Shown here: piece after piece, positions 3,950 to 29,511 of the stretch
Position numbering within the stretch: position 1 is the first letter of the stretch
Layout: each line of letters opens with the position of its first letter
Source of the DNA: Escherichia phage phiSUSP1
DNA length: 64,000 nucleotides
Strand: one strand, 5' to 3'
Sequence record: KT454805
Notes under the pieces: model-generated
The model's database searches: none
What the model was told of the DNA's origin: nothing
Seen by the model: only the letters and a program-made list of their open reading frames with translations
Translations under genes and position numbers: made by a program

Positions 3950-5296
3950 ATGAGTTCGAATATCTTCAGACTTGCTGATAGATTATTCAACCAACCTTTA
4001 CTAGCCACTGAATCTCTAGCTCACTCAGCAGCGACTTATGTAAATAATCGCTTGTTAGGTGAAGTTCAAGCAGCAGTCAATTTCGACAAACCTAAAGGTG
4101 AGGCAAGAAGTCTTTTAAAAGTTAAAGACGACATTGCTATTATCCCTATTATGGGTGGCCTAACACATCGTATGACCTTTATGGATGCAATGTGTACTGG
4201 TGGTCTGAGTTCTTATGAAGGTTTACGCAGAGGCTTTGATGAAGCTTTAGCAGATGAATCTATTAAGACAATTGTACTGCATGTTGATTCTGGTGGTGGT
4301 GAAGCTTCAGGTTGTTTTGAATTAGCACGTCACATCGTAGCCTCCAGAGGCAAAAAGAAAATTGTAGCATATGTTGATGAGTTCGCATGTTCCGCTGCGT
4401 ATGCACTTGCATGTTCTGCTGATGAAGTAATTGCATCACCAGATGCAGATGTTGGTTCAATCGGTGTAATTATGGTTCACCAAGAATTAACTAAAGCATT
4501 TGAAAAGAATGGCGTTACGATTAACGTTATTAAAGCTGGTGAATTTAAAGGTTTGGGTTCTCCATTCCAAGCACTCTCAGAAGAAAGCAAAACAAGACTT
4601 CAGCAGAGAATTAATGACACCTATAACACCTTCACAGGTTTTGTAGCTGATGCACGTAATATCTCTGAAGAAGCTGTAAAGAATACTGAGGCGAATGTTT
4701 ATTCTGCTCAGGAAGCTCTTGAACTTGGTTTAATTAATTCAATCATGTCTCAAGATGATTTCTTAAATTACTTACAAGGTTCTGATGAAGCTCCTGTAAG
4801 TTTAAACGTTAACAATTCAGGTGAAGAAATGACTGAACAAGAAAAGCAAGAACTAGAGGCTCTACGCGCTCAGGTTGCTCAGATGAAAGCAAAAGAACAG
4901 GAAAAAACTATGTCTGAACTGACTGGTAAGATTTCTGCTTCTGCTGAAGCTTTCGGATTTGACGCAACAGAAGCTGCTCAGGCTATCTTAGGCGCTGGTC
5001 TTGACAACCCTCTGAGTGTTCTCTTTATGAATGCTATGGAAGGTGCTAACCAGAAACTAAATGAAACTATCGCGTCTCATGCTTCTGCAATGTCAGAGAA
5101 AGACACAGAAATCACTAAGCTGAAAGAAACTGCTGGTGCTGTTCTGGAACACTCTAACGCAATGGAAGAAATGGGTAATGACGGTGAAGCAGAACTGGTT
5201 GATGAAGAAAAACCTTCTGAAAACGCATCTGATGACACCGCAGAACAACGCAAACTGGCTCTCCAGAATGCTTTGCAATCTCTTCTTAATAAATAA
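3950..5296 (+). CDS. prohead protease (S49/SppA-ClpP-like) fused to coiled-coil scaffold-like C-terminal region
   Basis: N-terminal peptidase-like region (IIPIMGGL, VDSGGGEASGCFELA, acyl-enzyme Ser region FACSAAYALAC); C-terminal Q/E/K-rich helical region; between portal and capsid. Confidence 0.7.
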   Translation: MSSNIFRLADRLFNQPLLATESLAHSAATYVNNRLLGEVQAAVNFDKPKGEARSLLKVKDDIAIIPIMGGLTHRMTFMDAMCTGGLSSYEGLRRGFDEALADESIKTIVLHVDSGGGEASGCFELARHIVASRGKKKIVAYVDEFACSAAYALACSADEVIASPDADVGSIGVIMVHQELTKAFEKNGVTINVIKAGEFKGLGSPFQALSEESKTRLQQRINDTYNTFTGFVADARNISEEAVKNTEANVYSAQEALELGLINSIMSQDDFLNYLQGSDEAPVSLNVNNSGEEMTEQEKQELEALRAQVAQMKAKEQEKTMSELTGKISASAEAFGFDATEAAQAILGAGLDNPLSVLFMNAMEGANQKLNETIASHASAMSEKDTEITKLKETAGAVLEHSNAMEEMGNDGEAELVDEEKPSENASDDTAEQRKLALQNALQSLLNK

Positions 5297-5308
5297 GGAA
5301 CACAAATA

Positions 5309-5686
5309 ATGGCATATGAAGGTTTTACTCACTTAGGTAACAGAGAACCACTGAATGATATCATTCTTTGGGAACAGATTACACCAACAGGTCACTCTCG
5401 TAAAGAGTACGCTCCAGTCGCTGCTACAGAATACCGTGTAGGTGAAGTTCTGAAAGCCGATGGAACCAAAGTTGCAACTGGTGAAGAAGCTCAGGCTGAT
5501 TCTGTTTGCATCGTTAACTTCTACGCAGACCTGCAACTGTCTTACCACGGTCAGTTGAAAGTTGTTGGTATCTACCGTGATGCTGAACTGAAAGACCTCT
5601 TAACTCTGGCTGAAGATGTTGATGCCGACGCAGTTAAGGCGGCTCTGAAAGCAAAAGGCATTGATTTCGTACCAACTGGCCTGTAA
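5309..5686 (+). CDS. head protein (decoration/scaffold-like), function uncertain
   Basis: 125 aa ORF between protease and major capsid gene. Confidence 0.4.
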   Translation: MAYEGFTHLGNREPLNDIILWEQITPTGHSRKEYAPVAATEYRVGEVLKADGTKVATGEEAQADSVCIVNFYADLQLSYHGQLKVVGIYRDAELKDLLTLAEDVDADAVKAALKAKGIDFVPTGL

Positions 5687-22941: not shown

Positions 22942-23139
22942 ATGCCGACTATCCTAGCAATCCTCTTAAAAAACTTGGGTAGCTTCTTCTGGAAACTTCT
23001 ACTTTCCCTTCTGAGTGAATACATGATTGAGAAAGCCTTCTTCAGACTTGCAAGATACCTTGCGAGTAAGACAGATACGCCTATTGATGATGAATTTGTT
23101 AACAACTTGGAAAAAGCCTTTAAAGGGGAGAAAGAATGA
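22942..23139 (+). CDS. small hydrophobic protein (65 aa)
   Basis: ORF track; hydrophobic N-terminus ILAILLKNLGSFFWKLLLSLL. Confidence 0.35.
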   Translation: MPTILAILLKNLGSFFWKLLLSLLSEYMIEKAFFRLARYLASKTDTPIDDEFVNNLEKAFKGEKE

Positions 23140-23514: not shown

Positions 23515-23543
23515 AAGGCTCCCGTAAAAAGGAGCCTTTTTTG
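23515..23543 (+). terminator. intrinsic terminator between convergent gene blocks
   Basis: AAGGCTCC-cgtaaaa-GGAGCCTT followed by TTTTTT. Confidence 0.7.
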
Positions 23544-23549
23544 TATCTA

Positions 23550-24446
23550 TCAACCTACTGACAAGGGAGCTTCAATCTTCCCTGCATGTCGATAGTCTTT
23601 GAAACCACCGATAAAGTCACTTGCCGTCATATGTTTGAGGTCATCCAGACATTTTAAATCTTGAACAATCTCAAACTTCGGTGCAGGAAACTCTTCATTC
23701 CCTAAAAGCTGGAATACCTGATTCATATGGTTCTGATAAATCTGAGTATCACCAAAAGTACCAATCAGATAACGAGGTGTATATCCAGTCATCTTACAAA
23801 GCACTTCCAAGATAAAACCATAAGACGCAATGTTAAATGGTAAACCTAAGAAGCTGTCTACAGAACGTTGATACCATTTTAAATCCACTTCACCAGTATT
23901 CGAGATGTAAATCTGGAAAAGCACATGACAAGGTGGTAAAGCCATTGCATTAGCTGAGATATCAGCAGCATTCCAAGCATTAACCAGCATGTAACGGTCT
24001 GTAGGAGACTTTTTCATCTTGGTAATCAGATTGTCTAGCTGGTCAACTGTAACGCCACCATGACCTTCTGAGGCTCTCCACTGGACACCATAGATACGTC
24101 CACCTGCATCATCCAACCAATCTTGCTCACTTGCATACGTTGTTTTAAGCCAACGTTCAAAGTCATTTGTCCAGATTGTCCAACGTTCCCCATCGTTTTC
24201 TCCCCAAGTACGATAGCGAAGATGACCAAGTTTATTCTCACCATTCAAGAACCATAAAGCTTCACCAATAACTTGTCTGGTCAGAACCTGTTTAGAGGTT
24301 AGTAAAGGAAAACCAGTACGCATATCAAAACGAAACTCTGGTGGTGAGAACGTTGAAATTACAGAACCAGTTCGGGTTTTACGCTGCTCACCAACTGTTA
24401 AAACATGGTTCAGAATATTTTTGTAACTTACATCTGCCTGTGACAT
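23550..24446 (-). CDS. thyA: thymidylate synthase
   Basis: catalytic-Cys motif ALPPCH; WYQRSVDSFLGLPFNIASY matches the T4 td/ThyA block from memory; DHFR immediately downstream. Confidence 0.9.
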   Translation of the reverse strand: MSQADVSYKNILNHVLTVGEQRKTRTGSVISTFSPPEFRFDMRTGFPLLTSKQVLTRQVIGEALWFLNGENKLGHLRYRTWGENDGERWTIWTNDFERWLKTTYASEQDWLDDAGGRIYGVQWRASEGHGGVTVDQLDNLITKMKKSPTDRYMLVNAWNAADISANAMALPPCHVLFQIYISNTGEVDLKWYQRSVDSFLGLPFNIASYGFILEVLCKMTGYTPRYLIGTFGDTQIYQNHMNQVFQLLGNEEFPAPKFEIVQDLKCLDDLKHMTASDFIGGFKDYRHAGKIEAPLSVG

Positions 24447-24447
24447 A

Positions 24448-24993
24448 TCAGAAACGTCCTCTTACTTGTGGAACATAGAAATTGACCACCCCAGATTTAT
24501 CATCCAGAGGTTTAGCCTGTATTCTAGCAAATAGTTCAGGTTCGTGTAAATACTCAAAGAATCCCTCTTCAGGAAGATACACAGTTGGCTCTTTAGTAAT
24601 TTCATAGATAACTGTGTGGTAAACCTCATCAGCAAACGGTAAAGCGGATTTTAAGATGTTTGCACCACCAATCACACAGACATTTTCATCAATCTGGCTG
24701 TCAATCTTCTTCAAGAATGCACCGAAAGAGTCTGGGTCAACCTTCGCAATAACAAAACCATCATTGTCAAAGTCTATCCCATAATATGGAAGGTTGTTTG
24801 ACAGAATCATGTTCTCACGATTTGGTAAAGGTTTACGTCCAAGAGTCTTGAAAGTCTCGTTACCCATGATTACAAGCTGGTTTTGAGTCAGCTTTTTAAA
24901 CTCTTTCATGTCTTCACGGTTACGCTCCCAAGGCATCCCATCAGGAGTACCAAACTCACCTTTACGACCACTTGCAAATACTAAACGAATCAT
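24448..24993 (-). CDS. folA: dihydrofolate reductase
   Basis: 181 aa; N-terminal MPWE motif and LVIMG..TF..LGRKPLP..N.ILS pattern typical of DHFR. Confidence 0.8.
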   Translation of the reverse strand: MIRLVFASGRKGEFGTPDGMPWERNREDMKEFKKLTQNQLVIMGNETFKTLGRKPLPNRENMILSNNLPYYGIDFDNDGFVIAKVDPDSFGAFLKKIDSQIDENVCVIGGANILKSALPFADEVYHTVIYEITKEPTVYLPEEGFFEYLHEPELFARIQAKPLDDKSGVVNFYVPQVRGRF

Positions 24994-25259
24994 TTGAAAA
25001 ACCCCTTAATGATAAACCAGTTGATGACGTTCTTAATAACTTTAACTGGATGGTAAATAATATGTGGATGTGGCTCATAACTTCCATAAGCCCAAAAAGA
25101 AACAACCTTCATACAACCACGGCAACGAGTGTACTCTGCTGCTACATGACCAGATACAATATCACTTACCTCACCTTGGAAGTCTGTACCACCACAATGA
25201 GGACAACGTATTGGTTCGCCACTCTGCATGTAACAGTGTTCAACTTTAAAGATTTTCAT
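24990..25259 (-). CDS. small zinc-ribbon protein (89 aa)
   Basis: CPHCGG ... CRGC cysteine pairs. Confidence 0.4.
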   Translation of the reverse strand: MKIFKVEHCYMQSGEPIRCPHCGGTDFQGEVSDIVSGHVAAEYTRCRGCMKVVSFWAYGSYEPHPHIIYHPVKVIKNVINWFIIKGFFK

Positions 25260-25774
25260 TTCTTATTCACCTTATATTCTTGTTCCAGTTTTACAATGAA
25301 ATCAAGGTCATCACCACACGATGAAAGGAAGTCTTCAAAGTGTTTTGGGATGAAATCTAAGAAGTTCATCGTTGCAAGATTGCCAGCAAGAGTTATGTAG
25401 CTGTTATTCTGACATTCAGCAGTGATTACATACTCACCAGCTTCTGGCCTTACCAAATCCACAATATCATCTAAAAAGATGTTAAGTAAAGCTTTGAAGC
25501 TACGTGGATACTGCATACCTTCATACAACTCAATGCTTGGAACCAGCTTCACAGAGATTGATTTAGAATCTCGAAACTCAGTAGTGAAGAGGTGAGTTGG
25601 TAAAAGGCAAAGTGCATCACCAGTATCTTCATCAAGAAACTCAATCGTTCCAGCTTCGTAGTTTGTCTCAATCAGGATTGTGCCCTCTTGGAGCCTACGA
25701 TTTTTCAGGTGTTCTTTGATAACACCCTTAAGCAGAATTGCTTCTGGTTCTGTTAAGCTGTTTCCAATCTTCAT
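25256..25774 (-). CDS. hypothetical protein (172 aa)
   Basis: ORF track; overlapping start/stop with neighbours. Confidence 0.4.
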   Translation of the reverse strand: MKIGNSLTEPEAILLKGVIKEHLKNRRLQEGTILIETNYEAGTIEFLDEDTGDALCLLPTHLFTTEFRDSKSISVKLVPSIELYEGMQYPRSFKALLNIFLDDIVDLVRPEAGEYVITAECQNNSYITLAGNLATMNFLDFIPKHFEDFLSSCGDDLDFIVKLEQEYKVNKK

Positions 25775-25775
25775 A

Positions 25776-26276
25776 TTAAACCTCTACAAAAGTTTGTTTG
25801 TCATTATCGTATGCGAAGAATTGTATAACCTTTTGAGTGTTCCAGTCAATCTTTTCATCATAAGAAAGACCTTTATCAACACGCTTTGCAACAGTCTGAT
25901 AGATTATCTCACGTAACTTCTCAAACTCTGTTCCACTACTGAACGGTTGCATAGTGACTTTCTTGTAACCCTCAACAGCTTTCTTGTTCCACTCTTGAGC
26001 AGTTGGAGAGGTTACTTTGTACAGCCGTGGGAACAGTTCATAACCCATCTTATTTTCTTCGTTAGCCATACGAAGTTGATGGAAGTACTCATTTACTCGA
26101 CCATCTTCTTCAAGCCATTTGTAAATCGTCTGCAAACGACCTAAATCGTTATTGTAATGTGCAGCACGTTTCACAGCACCTTTCTCAGTACGATACGGAG
26201 ACTTAGGAAGACTTAGCATACGTCCTGTCATCAGGTTGTATCCGAAGAACAAATCAATTTTTACGGGAAGAGACAT
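25776..26276 (-). CDS. hypothetical protein (166 aa)
   Basis: ORF track. Confidence 0.4.
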   Translation of the reverse strand: MSLPVKIDLFFGYNLMTGRMLSLPKSPYRTEKGAVKRAAHYNNDLGRLQTIYKWLEEDGRVNEYFHQLRMANEENKMGYELFPRLYKVTSPTAQEWNKKAVEGYKKVTMQPFSSGTEFEKLREIIYQTVAKRVDKGLSYDEKIDWNTQKVIQFFAYDNDKQTFVEV

Positions 26277-26620
26277 TTGATATCCTCATTTTTGAATACG
26301 AAAGTGGTATACTTAGTACCATCAACATCAAGCCAAGCACACATTACATCGACACCTTCAAGGTTGCTGTGAAGGTCACGAATAAAATGGTCTCGTACTT
26401 CTTTTGCACAGGTTGTCTCCAGTTTAATATTGGAGATTGCTGAACCAACAGCCATATAACCTTTTACACGATTCTTCTCAGAATGCTTAATCATTCCTTC
26501 CTGAACATAATCAGTTAGGTCATCAAGAATGTATTTCCCATACTGCTTCTCAGTTTCAGTAGGTTTCCCGTAGAAGCCAATTGCAAAGTTACCTTTGAAG
26601 ATTGCATTTTCACGTTTCAT
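26261..26620 (-). CDS. hypothetical protein (119 aa)
   Basis: ORF track. Confidence 0.4.
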   Translation of the reverse strand: MKRENAIFKGNFAIGFYGKPTETEKQYGKYILDDLTDYVQEGMIKHSEKNRVKGYMAVGSAISNIKLETTCAKEVRDHFIRDLHSNLEGVDVMCAWLDVDGTKYTTFVFKNEDIKCLFP

Positions 26621-26621
26621 A

Positions 26622-26951
26622 TTAATCTGACAGCCTTAAGTTAAAGTTAACACCAAGTTTTTCACAAGCTTTCAACATGTATTCAAGGGTAATCTTTCCA
26701 GTACCGTTGACAATGTTGGAAACACGACTTTGAGAGATATCACAAATCTTTGCGACTTGTGCCTGAGAAAGTTTTCTTTTCTCAATTTCTTTTTCAAAAC
26801 GGAATGCAACGAACTCTCTCATTTCGTCTACATCCATTGGACAGATATAACTTGCCATCTCATACTCTCTATCAGCTTCCCACTTATCTTGTGGAGCATA
26901 AGGGTCAAAGACTTCATTCATCTTTCTTCCTCCGTTTTCTGGAAGTGTCAA
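26622..26951 (-). CDS. HTH (XRE-like) DNA-binding protein
   Basis: helix-turn-helix-like segment LSQAQVAKICDISQSRVSNIVNG. Confidence 0.5.
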   Translation of the reverse strand: MTLPENGGRKMNEVFDPYAPQDKWEADREYEMASYICPMDVDEMREFVAFRFEKEIEKRKLSQAQVAKICDISQSRVSNIVNGTGKITLEYMLKACEKLGVNFNLRLSD

Positions 26952-27117
26952 TCAATGAATCTATGTTTGTTGCTCTGACGTTTTCACGAGTACCATTGAT
27001 ATGGTCATCCAGTGCTTTATCTACCTCAGAGTCATCTGCACAGTAAACTCGGAAGATAGCATAACCTTCATCGTCAAGCACTTCTCCATAGTTCTTCCTG
27101 CAATGATTCTTCTTCAT
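26914..27117 (-). CDS. small hypothetical protein (67 aa)
   Basis: ORF track; overlaps neighbour by about 38 nt, so the start is uncertain. Confidence 0.3.
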   Translation of the reverse strand: MKKNHCRKNYGEVLDDEGYAIFRVYCADDSEVDKALDDHINGTRENVRATNIDSLIDTSRKRRKKDE

Positions 27118-27118
27118 A

Positions 27119-27499
27119 TCATAGACCTACGCAGGTACGCTTTTCAACAAAATAGTGAACACCTTTGAAAGTTTCATCCATCATTTCACTTTCAGTATCA
27201 CTGACCTTCTCAATGCTCTTGGAATCAAGCAAGTCAACATCCTGAGTGACCATAGCATCAGAAACAGCTTCGTAGTAGTCTGCCATCACACGATATTTGT
27301 AATCAGTAATACGGTCAGACATTTCTATGACAGTTGGAGAAGATAACGGCTTAGTTAACTCCCCAGCATCTGTTACGACTTTACGAACAATCTGACAAGC
27401 CTCCATAGAGACCTTGCTAAAGTCTGCTTCAGGCATCTTCATAGCTGATGCACCAAAACTCAGAGTTGCCAGAATGACACCTACCATAAGCTTTTTCAT
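27119..27499 (-). CDS. secreted/periplasmic protein with cleavable signal peptide (126 aa)
   Basis: N-terminus MKKLMVGVILATLSFGASA with AxA cleavage site; two Cys; GAGGTGA RBS; first gene after the repeat-rich promoter region. Confidence 0.5.
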   Translation of the reverse strand: MKKLMVGVILATLSFGASAMKMPEADFSKVSMEACQIVRKVVTDAGELTKPLSSPTVIEMSDRITDYKYRVMADYYEAVSDAMVTQDVDLLDSKSIEKVSDTESEMMDETFKGVHYFVEKRTCVGL

Positions 27500-27543
27500 A
27501 ACTCACCTCATATAAAATTTTGTATACATTCAAGTATAAAAAT

Positions 27544-27582
27544 AAGCTATAACACCTGACTTGTCAACAGATTTTATAGCTT
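27544..27582 (-). promoter_or_regulatory. minus-strand promoter region with -35 TTGACA flanked by a 9-bp inverted repeat
   Basis: TTGACA on minus strand at 27563..27568; AAGCTATAA (27544..27552) and TTATAGCTT (27574..27582) are perfect reverse complements; -10 is not clean. Confidence 0.35.
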
Positions 27583-27602
27583 ATTTGGCAGATTTTTTAT
27601 AA

Positions 27603-27753
27603 GGCTACTGCCATCCTTCCATACCTCACCACACAAGACCAGACCATGCCGTACTCCACTTCACAGGACCAAGCATCACTTAAAAACCCTCTTAGAAGAC
27701 TCTTAAGTGGTGTAAGTCTCATTTTAATGTAGCTGAGACTAACTACCCATACC
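27603..27753. repeat. regulatory repeat module copy 1: CA-rich tract + 36-bp element A + 42-bp hairpin element B
   Basis: element A 27674..27709 is identical to 29230..29265; element B 27712..27753 repeats at 27855..27896 with 1 mismatch; plus strand almost lacks G across the CA-rich tract. Confidence 0.75.
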
Positions 27754-27816
27754 GAACCTTACTAAACCACACTTTACCTGACTGAACCCTACCAAACATC
27801 ACCATGCCAGACCAAA

Positions 27817-28003
27817 CCTTATTAAAAGACCCTCTTCAAAGACCTTTTAAAAAGGTGAGTCTCATTTTAATGTAGCTGAGACTAACTACCCATACCAAAC
27901 CAGACCGCACCAGACAAAACCACGCCAAACCGCACCTTACCCAACCTTAACACACCAGACCCAACCTTATTAAAAGACCCTGTTTAAAGACCTTTTAAAA
28001 AGG
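27817..28003. repeat. tandem duplication of about 148 bp (element C, CA-rich tract, element B)
   Basis: 39-bp element C at 27817..27855 and 27965..28003 (2 mismatches); B copy 2 at 27855..27896. Confidence 0.7.
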
Positions 28004-28030: not shown

Positions 28031-28471
28031 TTAGAAAGGCTTTCTACGTTGCTTGTTAATGTTAGCTTTCATAGCAGCTAAATGGTTTTGCTGTTCAATC
28101 AGTCGTGAACGTTCTTGATGACTAAGTGCCATAGTGTTCACATTCTCAATTGCTTGGGTGGCTTGCTTTAAAGCTCGACCAATCTTACCAGACATTTTAC
28201 GTTTTGCAATAGTTGCTTGATGTTTTGGTTCAACTACACGATAACCCACACCCATTGAAGCAACCAGATAAATCTTTTCTTCTTTAAGAAGCTTTTCGAT
28301 AAACTTCTCAAGTCGGTTTAATCGTGTCAGAGAATAAGCCTTCATCTCATCTTCGTACTTAACAATATCACCCTGATAAGTTGGCTTCACAATACCTAAG
28401 AAGGTATCCATTTCAGAGTGTGATACAGTATCACCGTAACTAAACTTTGCTGCTAATGCTTTTGTATTCAT
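28031..28471 (-). CDS. hypothetical protein (146 aa), cassette gene 2
   Basis: ORF track; basic C-terminus; no recognisable motif. Confidence 0.45.
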   Translation of the reverse strand: MNTKALAAKFSYGDTVSHSEMDTFLGIVKPTYQGDIVKYEDEMKAYSLTRLNRLEKFIEKLLKEEKIYLVASMGVGYRVVEPKHQATIAKRKMSGKIGRALKQATQAIENVNTMALSHQERSRLIEQQNHLAAMKANINKQRRKPF

Positions 28472-28473
28472 AA

Positions 28474-29079
<606 letters not shown>

Positions 29080-29149: not shown

Positions 29150-29310
29150 ACGTGGCTACTACCATCCACCCACACCAGACCAAACCTAGCCTTACCCCAC
29201 CGCACCTTACCGAACCACACCTTACCATACATCACTTAAAAACCCTCTTAGAAGACTCTTAAGTGATGCTGGTGAGTACCCGTTGGTTTATGCTGCTCAG
29301 TATACTCACC
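29150..29310. repeat. regulatory repeat module copy 2: CA-rich tract + element A + B-like hairpin
   Basis: element A 29230..29265 is a perfect 36-bp copy; 8-bp stem hairpin GGTGAGTA...TACTCACC at 29271..29310; CA-rich tract 29150..29229 shares blocks with 27603..27673. Confidence 0.7.
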
Positions 29311-29322
29311 AAATTTTCTATG

Positions 29323-29511
29323 TCAACAACTTTCTAATAAAGTTTTATAAAGATTTTGCTTAACGACTCGCCTCACATGCCTATGCTCTTTCTTAATAAA
29401 GAGTGACCTCTTCTTGATAGAGCGCCTATTCTTGTAAGTGTTGCTAGGGTACTTATCGTGACCCGGACAACAACTGCCAGGATTTGTAAACTTGATAATC
29501 TCTCTTTTCAC
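29323..29511 (-). CDS. small basic ORF (62 aa), doubtful
   Basis: GTG start overlapping ligase stop by 1 nt; lysine/arginine-rich; may be non-coding leader. Confidence 0.2.
   Translation of the reverse strand: MKREIIKFTNPGSCCPGHDKYPSNTYKNRRSIKKRSLFIKKEHRHVRRVVKQNLYKTLLESC

Follow-up and report, generated by a model that had tools for sequence, protein, structure and literature searches.

The question raised by this locus is whether seven short minus-strand open reading frames in the genome of Escherichia phage phiSUSP1 form an island of their own, with functions in host takeover, anti-defence or superinfection exclusion as originally predicted, or belong to a larger transcription unit. The window, i.e., the whole stretch of 64,000 nucleotides analysed here, is DNA of this Felix O1-like myovirus, with coordinates identical to those of NC_028808. 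The seven predicted frames (67–172 aa) were all present at unchanged positions in the ORF listing, and their coordinates are those of the annotated CDS agp031–037 (AVU07_agp031–037), here called g1–g7. The public annotation of these genes consists of "hypothetical protein" and "transcriptional regulator" only. With the two genes which follow them, they are:

27119..27499, minus strand: g7 (agp037), 126 aa, predicted Sec signal peptide with cleavage between ASA and MK
26914..27117, minus strand: g6 (agp036), 67 aa, N-terminal half variable, C-terminus nearly invariant
26622..26921, minus strand: g5 (agp035), 99 aa, XRE-family HTH at residues ~46–93
26261..26620, minus strand: g4 (agp034), 119 aa, soluble, lineage-specific
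25776..26276, minus strand: g3 (agp033), 166 aa, basic, in Suspvirus and Mooglevirus
25256..25774, minus strand: g2 (agp032), 172 aa, acidic, pI 4.6
24990..25259, minus strand: g1 (agp031), 89 aa, predicted CxxC...CxxC zinc ribbon, stop overlapping the DHFR start
24448..24993, minus strand: frd (agp030), dihydrofolate reductase (DHFR_1, 88 bits), translationally coupled to g1
23550..24446, minus strand: thyA/td (agp029), thymidylate synthase, last gene of the unit

A chance origin of the open frames, or mis-annotation, has a probability that is as good as negligible. The small size of the seven could be taken in its favour, as could the fact that Pfam recognised no known domain in five of them, but each of the seven matched one PHROG family (all of unknown function; E about 3e-39 to 7e-95), ribosome binding sites precede most starts, and pairwise dN/dS values against three relatives (92–97% identical) were 0.03–0.31 for all seven, well below 1 and indicative of purifying selection. 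With the gene order kept in 36 genomes (see below), sequence comparison thus confirmed g1–g7 as real genes. No enzymatic motif was detected in any of them by Pfam profile search, in agreement with the original prediction.

The block had been described as an island, but it forms the promoter-proximal section of a unit of nine genes which ends with frd and thyA. Neighbouring ORFs overlap by 4, 8 or 16 nt or are separated by 1 nt, and a Shine-Dalgarno motif is found upstream of most, not all, starts. The block continues past 24990: g1 and the DHFR start share the bases ATGA, and 1 nt separates DHFR from thyA; the cistron order from end to end is g7, g6, g5, g4, g3, g2, g1, frd, thyA. The features which precede and terminate the unit are:

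27540..27586, no strand assigned: inverted repeat with 19-nt arms, 17/19 complementary, enclosing the -35 hexamer
27539..27567, minus strand: predicted sigma-70-like promoter, TTGACA (27567-27562), 17-nt spacer, TATTTT (27544-27539), 10/12 consensus matches
27508..27526, minus strand: AT-rich element TATACAAAATTTTATATGA between -10 and RBS, with columns invariant across eight phages
23515..23538, no strand assigned: bidirectional intrinsic terminator after thyA, common to the converging holin operon, at the end of the nine-gene unit

Judged by consensus only, the unit has the layout of an operon, with a sigma-70-type promoter at its 5' side, a terminator at its end and none internally; the predicted position of the seven genes downstream of a promoter region was thereby supported. 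The -10 hexamer is ambiguous, since it could be TATTTT at 17 nt or TATACT (27538-27533, directly after TATTTT) at 23 nt; TATACT, like TTGACA, is invariant in eight phages. Between the operon promoter and position 23538, a scan revealed neither a terminator-like site nor a further promoter-like site that is strong; the number of sites in the promoter scan was no higher than in shuffled sequence, and promoter and read-through are to be regarded as consensus predictions for phiSUSP1. For Felix O1, the equivalent t79/t80 terminators have been listed.

Across the 36 enterobacterial Ounavirinae loci of the survey (three genera), six of the seven genes were always present and their order never changed. 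The sole variable in content was g3, which is missing from every Felixounavirus locus of the survey, Felix O1 included. The same arrangement was found in Felix O1, Sf14, ESh21, Moogle, CHB7, mistaenkt and PC79-13, and in every relative the genes remain tightly coupled as far as frd (ATGA overlap). The Felix O1 orthologues, ORF82–87, lie beside frd and td in unchanged order and differ from g1–g7 by the lack of g3. Erwinia and Yersinia relatives possess thyA (the Erwinia phage also frd) without g1, g2, g5, g6 and g7. Of the seven, only g4 is clearly also present in these distant relatives, where it lies, as does a g3-like gene, within the replication module (polymerase/ligase/frd/td).

Published data for Felix O1 point to expression of the tested orthologues before the late phase. 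By RT-PCR of Felix O1, ORF81 (frd) peaked at 10 min and ORF80, 83, 84 and 87 at 25 min, as did ligase (88) and polymerase (96), while late genes peaked at 60 min; the RT-PCR data are coarsely tabulated and contain no entry for ORF82, 85 and 86. Gp82–87 are absent from the Felix O1 virion proteome. Thus, the tested orthologues did not peak late, and, apart from a sub-threshold hint for g2 (see below), no sign of a structural role emerged; neither of the two observations which would have refuted the original prediction, late timing and clear structural homology, was made. The designation of the block as early-type agrees with the pre-late peak of the tested Felix O1 orthologues; for the functions attached to it (takeover, anti-defence, exclusion) no positive evidence was found. 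A CRISPRi-ART dCas13d knock-down of phiSUSP1 scored agp029–037 all as "Not Fit" (fitness -1.6 to +1.0, p > 0.19). The screen, carried out in a defence-poor K-12 host, caught most expected essential genes, and a "Not Fit" score carries little weight, since there are false negatives and ligase and tail fibre were also Not Fit. Together with the disruption of g2 and the absence of g3 in relatives, these scores are a weak indication that the seven genes are dispensable in the laboratory host, as would be expected for auxiliary genes.

We favour, with a probability of roughly 0.6, the reading that the seven ORFs make up the promoter-proximal section of a conserved operon of nine phiSUSP1 genes, which is expressed early to middle in infection. 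The products would be auxiliary, condition-dependent proteins for host interaction or regulation, rather than core replication or structural proteins. Predicted are a helical protein exported to the periplasm (g7), a protein with a basic tail (g6), an HTH DNA-binding protein (g5) and a zinc ribbon (g1); g4, g3 and g2 are lineage-specific soluble proteins, and frd and thyA encode the two enzymes of dTMP synthesis.

The XRE-like HTH proposed for 26622..26951 was found in g5 (HTH_3, PF01381, 45.5 bits versus a Pfam cut-off of 23, E 7.6e-12); the TTG start at 26951 was not upheld. The start is most likely ATG at 26921, because GGAGGA is located 7 nt upstream and all orthologues begin with MN(E/D/K)VFDPY; TTG 26951 lies within g6 and has no RBS. 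On the TTG-start ORF (109 aa, 10 aa longer), HTH_3 maps to residues 56–103. HTH_37 (PF13744; "HigA2-like" is the InterPro model name, quoted from the CHB7 record) also exceeded its cut-off (32 versus 27 bits), and the best natural solved-structure match was HigA2 of M. tuberculosis, with a marginal E of 1.8e-3. The equivalog score of NCBIfam HigA (TIGR02607) was not reached (25.8 versus 47.7 bits). A conserved acidic extension of ~45 residues precedes the HTH; its N-terminal motif occurred in 0 of 185,579 bacterial and archaeal species genomes. Like XRE/Cro-C1 regulators (HigA2-type antitoxins, controller (C) proteins of R-M systems), g5 is small, possesses an HTH_3/HTH_37 domain, would by analogy probably be dimeric and autoregulatory, and has an N-terminal extension as in HigA2. 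Unlike HigA2 and C proteins, it is accompanied by no cognate toxin or R-M genes, belongs to a strictly lytic phage and carries an N-terminal motif unique to its own phage lineage. The gene g6 comes first and overlaps the start of g5 by 8 nt. Its C-terminus, RE(N/K)VRATN(I/L)DSLIDTSRKR(R/K)KKDE, forms a basic tail; the constraint acts on the protein, since synonymous differences underlie the invariant peptide.

Most likely, g5 would bind a putative site unique to its own promoter region. Candidates are the inverted repeat around the -35 hexamer and the AT-rich element downstream; binding could result in autoregulation of the operon, possibly with the translationally coupled g6. The recognition-helix segment ISQ(S/A)RVSNI is kept across phages with different promoter types, and TATACAAAATTTTATATGA is kept regardless of the type of promoter which precedes it. 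With one site in 64 kb versus 0.03 expected, this element is a candidate for an operator or a 5'-UTR element. The inverted repeat occurs once in the 64-kb window, shows no difference between phiSUSP1, SUSP2, Felix O1 and Moogle (100% identity), and has a predicted RNA fold with an MFE of -24.9 kcal/mol (z = -3.6). We take it for a composite hairpin/promoter, or possibly an operator; it could equally be a composite terminator/promoter stem with no protein partner.

Upstream of the block, a mobile two-gene cassette (u2-u1) bounded by direct repeats was noticed, which is the true variable element here. The hairpin-embedded promoters upstream are similar to the PeSL elements of T4-like phages (PMC2839356, PMC4122927), recombination-prone cassettes in which terminator and promoter are combined, in that an early promoter lies within a stem-loop, the promoter element shows much stronger conservation than the genes on either side, and the location is an indel boundary. 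They differ in phage family and sequence and in the position of the phiSUSP1 element, which is upstream of the coding block and outside it; recombination activity of this element would follow from genome comparison only.

The zinc ribbon predicted at 24990..25259 is supported by the four cysteines of g1 (C19, C22, C46, C49), which are invariant in 7 sequences, including the distant relatives in JSE and JenP2; there the gene does not adjoin frd. Weak relatives occur in Nonagvirus and Krischvirus phages. Similarities to the ECs_2282 and Lar zinc-ribbon families were below threshold and came from 3–5 of 7 family members, with E below 0.01 for Lar in only 3/7; for Lar restriction alleviation, the cut-offs were missed (PF14354, 13.7 versus 28.6 bits; TIGR03655, 16.7 versus 39.6 bits). 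Thus g1 shares with the Lar/ECs_2282 CxxC prophage proteins the CxxC...CxxC ribbon, a similar size and weak matches, but all scores remain below curated cut-offs and g1 has in addition an invariant WAYGxYxP motif and a hydrophobic C-terminal tail.

The prediction of a secreted protein is supported by the Sec signal peptide features of g7, which are kept in all orthologues. The export call was made by inspection of these features: the N-terminus, MKK-LMVGVILATLSFG-ASA followed by M, contains the hydrophobic maximum of the protein, and in all orthologues MKK is followed by a hydrophobic core and a cleavage motif of the small-x-A type (mostly A-x-A, e.g., AVA or AYA, and V-N-A in Felix O1). A lipoprotein was rejected, since the first Cys is residue 35, and the predicted cleavage site and its surroundings are free of Cys. 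In the mature part, two Cys are conserved in all orthologues; three helices were predicted by a model of low confidence (pLDDT 44). The gene is found only in Ounavirinae-type genomes, with 32–59% identity between genera. The protein may act in the periplasm on an envelope target which differs between host genera. T4 Spackle (gp61.3), an early periplasmic superinfection-exclusion protein (PMC7677548, PMC7650644), is likewise small and, as g7 is predicted to be, exported and encoded in a pre-late transcription unit, but shows no sequence similarity to g7, and the helical content of g7 stems from a model too poor for fold comparison. A g7 profile searched against all PDB sequences (E up to 10) retrieved only unrelated helical proteins, Spackle not among them.

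For the remaining three proteins, little similarity was detected. Homologues of g4 formed 5 real clusters among 1.84 billion representatives, with no solved-structure relative. No family or structure match was obtained for g3, which shows a weak similarity (31%, E about 5e-3) to ORF069 of Yersinia phage P778. A confident alpha/beta model of g2 had no fold match in PDB or BFVD; a head-completion function (PF24163) was rejected on the basis of 16.6 bits versus a cut-off of 27 and no support from fold searches. The gene is disrupted in SUSP2 and Moogle and is lost in some laboratory-propagated phages.

Anti-defence genes are usually located in variable accessory regions. The original prediction of an anti-defence, host-takeover or superinfection-exclusion cassette appears somewhat unlikely to us; g7 could then be, e.g., a Spackle-like periplasmic exclusion factor, g1 a Lar-like anti-restriction ribbon and g2 an acidic inhibitor of a host immunity protein. 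Such a cassette would agree with small proteins devoid of enzymatic motifs behind an early-type promoter, with dispensability on the defence-poor K-12, with an acidic g2 which has no fold match and is repeatedly disrupted, with the presence or absence of g3 by genus, and with the export and divergence of g7 and the sub-threshold similarity of g1 to Lar and ECs_2282. But a variable accessory region was rejected, as neither content nor order changes in 36 loci of three genera, except for g3, which differs by genus; purifying selection acts on all seven. The genes g7 and g2, which differ strongly between genera, are yet 91–100% conserved within Felixounavirus, where they are less variable than frd or ligase, and for that reason show no arms-race signature. 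PADLOC models gave nothing beyond generic HTH similarity for the seven genes and no other anti-defence family was matched, the Lar scores of g1 are far below their cut-offs, and the g7 profile found no solved-structure relative, Spackle included. Moreover, the Felixounavirus phage Bas63 was reported to be "remarkably sensitive" to RM systems.

Quite unlikely, in our opinion, is a role of the small proteins as accessory factors of the nucleotide-precursor or replication machinery, e.g., by acting together with DHFR and thymidylate synthase or by regulating them. This would explain the co-transcription and translational coupling with frd and thyA, and it is consistent with the ATGA coupling in every relative, the location of g4 and a g3-like gene in the replication module of Erwinia and Yersinia phages, the expression peak shared with ligase and polymerase, and the reported dependence of SUSP1 on de novo nucleotide synthesis. 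Against it are the predicted export of g7, the nature of g5 as a putative DNA-binding regulator, and the lack of nucleotide-binding or enzymatic motifs in all seven; relatives of g1 exist apart from frd in JSE and JenP2, thyA of the Erwinia and Yersinia phages and frd of the Erwinia phage occur without five of the seven, and the screen provides no functional link, since frd and thyA were Not Fit too. Very improbable is a toxin-antitoxin-like pair g6-g5, or g5 as a decoy antitoxin against infection-activated host toxins of the HigB/RelE type. The HTH_37 score, the HigA2 match and extension of g5, the small overlapping gene in first position, and the invariant basic tail of g6 beside the invariant acidic N-terminus of g5 would fit such a pair, but g6 has only 67 aa, neither g6 nor g4 matched a toxin family in Pfam, NCBIfam or PADLOC, the HigA score and the PDB match of g5 are deficient and marginal, respectively, its N-terminal motif is missing from the bacterial and archaeal genomes searched, and its knock-down had no phenotype. 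That at least one lineage-specific protein has a new host-directed activity is unlikely; the best candidates would be g2, g7, perhaps as a factor of a new kind for exclusion in the periplasm or for modification of the envelope, and the g6-g5 pair, perhaps as a phage-specific regulator/partner module on a HigA2-like scaffold.

The finding of the nine-gene operon is largely ordinary, g1–g7 were already annotated, and three generic features (zinc ribbon, HTH, signal peptide) had been recognised correctly beforehand. The more informative biology is situated just upstream, in the two-gene cassette and the hairpin-embedded promoters. As it stands, the block is typical of early/middle phage operons in which small lineage-specific genes are collected, and it changes no picture. 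It represents a well-delimited set of seven conserved genes in a tractable phage with genome-wide knock-down data, and these genes are defined targets for testing on wild hosts.

All seven minus-strand open reading frames that had been predicted were present in the ORF listing of the window, and their coordinates are those of annotated phiSUSP1 coding sequences (NC_028808; CRISPRi-ART supplement), e.g., g1 = AVU07_agp031 (24990–25259) and g7 = agp037 (27119–27499); they are read in the order g7 to g1. The window corresponds to the first 64 kb of the genome of this published phage, a Felix O1-like myovirus classed in the Ounavirinae, genus Suspvirus, and the region shows 98% identity to Escherichia phage SUSP2. 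The proteins g2 and g4 matched phiSUSP1 entries exactly. Every one of the seven proteins had one full-length PHROG match (E values from 3e-39 to 7e-95) to families labelled as of unknown function, except for g5, which matched a "transcriptional regulator" PHROG. Comparison with three relatives (92–97% nucleotide identity) yielded dN/dS values of 0.03–0.31 for each gene; g1 to g7 are real genes under purifying selection. A Shine-Dalgarno motif precedes most of the ORF starts. The predicted frame with a helix-turn-helix (HTH) exists as g5, but the TTG start at 26951, which falls within g6, should be replaced: ATG 26921 is most likely the start, because it has the ribosome binding site GGAGGA, yields the N-terminus MN(E/D/K)VFDPY found throughout the orthologues, and is the annotated one.

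Overlaps of 4 nt were found at the g2/g1 junction and between g1 and the gene for dihydrofolate reductase (frd), of 8 nt at g6/g5 and of 16 nt at g4/g3; the remaining junctions have a gap of 1 nt. The surrounding features are:

28019–28004, terminator, upstream of the promoter-like site at 27567–27539 (consensus scan)
27567–27539, minus strand, promoter-like site TTGACA-17-TATTTT (consensus scan)
24448–24993, minus strand, frd (Pfam DHFR_1, 88 bits), its start overlapped by the g1 stop
23550–24446, minus strand, thymidylate synthase gene (thyA or td), beginning 1 nt after frd
23538–23515, bidirectional terminator after thyA (consensus scan)

Between the promoter-like site and position 23538 the consensus scan gave no terminator-like sites. 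The simplest reading of the sequence would be an operon of nine genes, with promoter, g7, g6, g5, g4, g3, g2, g1, frd, thyA and terminator in this order, and the same nine-gene layout was seen in phages Felix O1, Sf14, ESh21, Moogle, CHB7, mistaenkt and PC79-13. The notion of a self-contained island could thus not be maintained, since g1 runs into frd and thyA follows; the block is a fixed, conserved section of the frd-td operon and not a variable one.

Among 36 surveyed loci of enterobacterial Ounavirinae, the order of g7, g6, g5, g4, g2 and g1 was kept in all 36; g3 was carried by the Suspvirus and Mooglevirus loci and was missing in all Felixounavirus loci. The block was present in 257 of 257 matching phage records. 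Identities to the Felix O1 proteins were 65% (g1), 37% (g2), 66% (g4), 76% (g5), 62% (g6) and 32% (g7), compared with 60% for dihydrofolate reductase and 95% for ligase. Inside Felixounavirus, g7 (95–100%) and g2 (91–99%) were not more variable than ligase or dihydrofolate reductase, and therefore the large differences between genera are no sign of rapid diversification; diversifying selection on both genes was ruled out by dN/dS values of 0.03–0.26 and identities of 91–100% within the genus. In SUSP2, g2 is split by a frameshift (4857–5374 of its locus, L001), and in Moogle it contains an in-frame stop at codon 18 (3860–4375 of L005); these disruptions could be true pseudogenes, laboratory adaptations or sequencing errors. 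The g4 proteins of mistaenkt (L011, 2461–2820) and PC79-13 (L012, 2462–2821) are 73–76% identical to that of the window, compared with 96% for CHB7, and the genes flanking them 90–99%, which indicates a recombinational allele swap limited to g4. In distant relatives from Erwinia (Kolesnikvirus) and Yersinia, g4 (37–40%) and possibly a g3-like gene were the only ones of the seven detected, both within the polymerase/ligase/td module.

The expected zinc ribbon is present in g1 (CxxC...CxxC, four invariant cysteines), together with a WAYGxYxP motif. Matches of g1 to the ECs_2282 and Lar families were all under the curated cut-offs, and those to C2H2 zinc fingers, from a profile search against all PDB sequences, were Cys/His artefacts; nothing meaningful was obtained in that search with g1, g2, g3, g4 and g7. 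Weak relatives of g1 occur in JSE-like and 9g-like phages, where they do not adjoin frd, and a linkage to dihydrofolate reductase in other phages was thereby ruled out. A homologue search with g2 reached 15 proteins, from close relatives only, and paralogy of g2 and g3 was dismissed (hhalign probability 0.05). No family or structure match was found for g3. In the CHB7 record its orthologue, gp50 (L010, 1977–2477), is named "putative transcriptional regulatory protein" and credited with an HTH domain of the HigA2-like type; this label looks misplaced, since a Pfam scan detected zero domains in g3 of the window, whereas g5 carries such a domain. For g4, only five real clusters were present in 1.84 billion representative proteins (a 290-aa match, P0126, was repetitive, unrelated sequence), and a relative with solved structure was not found. 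Nothing informative was matched in PADLOC, NCBIfam or Rfam.

The HTH in g5 was confirmed by two Pfam models, HTH_3 and HTH_37 (HigA2-like), and the best natural match of solved structure was HigA2 of M. tuberculosis (E 1.8e-3). An origin as a captured bacterial antitoxin is unsupported, since the acidic conserved N-terminal motif had no match in the genomes of 185,579 species of bacteria and archaea. The C-terminal 24 residues of g6 are nearly invariant and end in a basic tail; the constraint acts on the protein, because synonymous changes lie beneath the invariant residues.

The secreted protein of the original prediction corresponds to g7, with a conserved Sec-type signal peptide (predicted export) and two conserved cysteines. 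It occurs only in Ounavirinae-type genomes. The homologue search reached 7 proteins, all from close relatives, which accounts for the failure of the structural model (pLDDT 44, three predicted helices, unreliable). An RI-like antiholin is unlikely: phages whose g7 proteins share 32–59% identity have putative holins that share about 93%, and the variation of g7 also fails to follow that of the tail-fibre tip.

Putative regulatory elements upstream of g7 and of the adjoining genes u1 and u2 are:

27540–27586, inverted repeat with 19-nt arms and the -35 hexamer in the loop
27533–27615 and 29299–29332, minus strand, hairpin-embedded promoters, also upstream of g7 in five relatives' loci (L003, L004, L010–L012)
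27508–27526, minus strand, AT-rich element between -10 and ribosome binding site, conserved with both promoter types, once in the window

As RNA, the inverted repeat has a folding energy of -24.9 kcal/mol (z = -3.6). An element of about 90 nt around it is shared across genera, by phiSUSP1, SUSP2, Felix O1 and Moogle, with 100% identity; g7, directly behind it, is just 32–59% identical. Other relatives have a different promoter, AAAGTTGTTGACA...TATACT, which likewise lies within an inverted repeat; the arms of the repeat vary by phage with complementarity kept (CTGACGGGT/ACCCGTCAG, TAGTGGGT/ACCCACTA, TCCGGTAGT/ACTACCGGA). The published description of the PeSLs of T4-like phages, which are composite terminator/promoter motifs, fits these hairpin-embedded promoters. 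The recognition-helix segment of g5 is conserved across both promoter types, and g5 may autoregulate its own operon at the inverted repeat or the AT-rich element, both of them unique in the window. A role of g5 as genome-wide temporal regulator is unsupported in the 64-kb window, where each candidate operator was found once.

Both types of hairpin promoter are positioned at the boundary of a cassette indel:

28031–29076, minus strand, u1 (agp038, 146 aa, basic) and u2 (agp039, 200 aa as ORF)
27619–27712 and 29175–29268, 94-nt direct repeats with palindromic core, bounding u1 and u2

By its sequence features this is a mobile cassette: it was found in 17 of 36 Ounavirinae loci from three genera with 96–99% protein identity, as compared to 32–95% for neighbouring genes. 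Gain or loss mediated by the repeats would leave a join inside the 94-nt repeat, as is seen in Felix O1, whose ligase-g7 spacer consists of the left (98%) and right (100%) junctions. A GGT-rich repeat region (27747–28003; two direct copies of about 109 nt with 75% identity, separated by 148 nt), which is presumably what was originally called the "repeat-rich promoter region", is larger in phiSUSP1 than in SUSP2, whose u1-g7 spacer is shorter. An unannotated candidate ORF (29323–29511, minus strand, 62 aa, GTG start, Lys/Arg-rich) lies in the roughly 180 nt that separate the upstream promoter from the ligase stop; in Felix O1, the promoter directly follows that stop.

Published experiments are available on timing and fitness. 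RT-PCR with Felix O1 showed a maximum at 10 min for ORF81 (frd) and at 25 min, together with ligase and DNA polymerase, for ORF80 (td), 83 (g2), 84 (g4) and 87 (g7); late genes peaked at 60 min. Gp82–87 were all absent from the Felix O1 virion proteome. The expectation of non-late, non-structural genes fits these Felix O1 data. In a genome-wide dCas13d knock-down of phiSUSP1 on E. coli NEB10beta (CRISPRi-ART), agp029–037 were all "Not Fit" and agp038 was "Semi-Fit"; most expected essential genes were recovered, with some false negatives, e.g., ligase. On the basis of these scores, g1 to g7 appear dispensable in the laboratory host. The same screen listed agp027 (22942–23139, plus strand) among 19 "Fit" genes and the putative holin as "Not Fit"; this ORF of 65 aa, hydrophobic at its N-terminus and with about 90% conservation between genera, overlaps with the beginning of the putative holin gene and may be relevant to the lysis mechanism of these phages.

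Positive evidence for anti-defence, host take-over or superinfection exclusion, the functions originally proposed, was not obtained, and the block is fixed and conserved. A Felixounavirus of the BASEL collection was "remarkably sensitive" to several restriction systems, which, assuming that it carries the block, argues against a potent general anti-restriction role. What stands is a set of probably pre-late, non-structural genes, apparently dispensable in the laboratory host, already annotated in the published genome and ordinary in kind; the variable island does not stand, and the proposed functions are unsupported. The remaining interest lies in g2, which is without a fold match, in g7, predicted to be exported and genus-specific, and in the g6-g5 pair.
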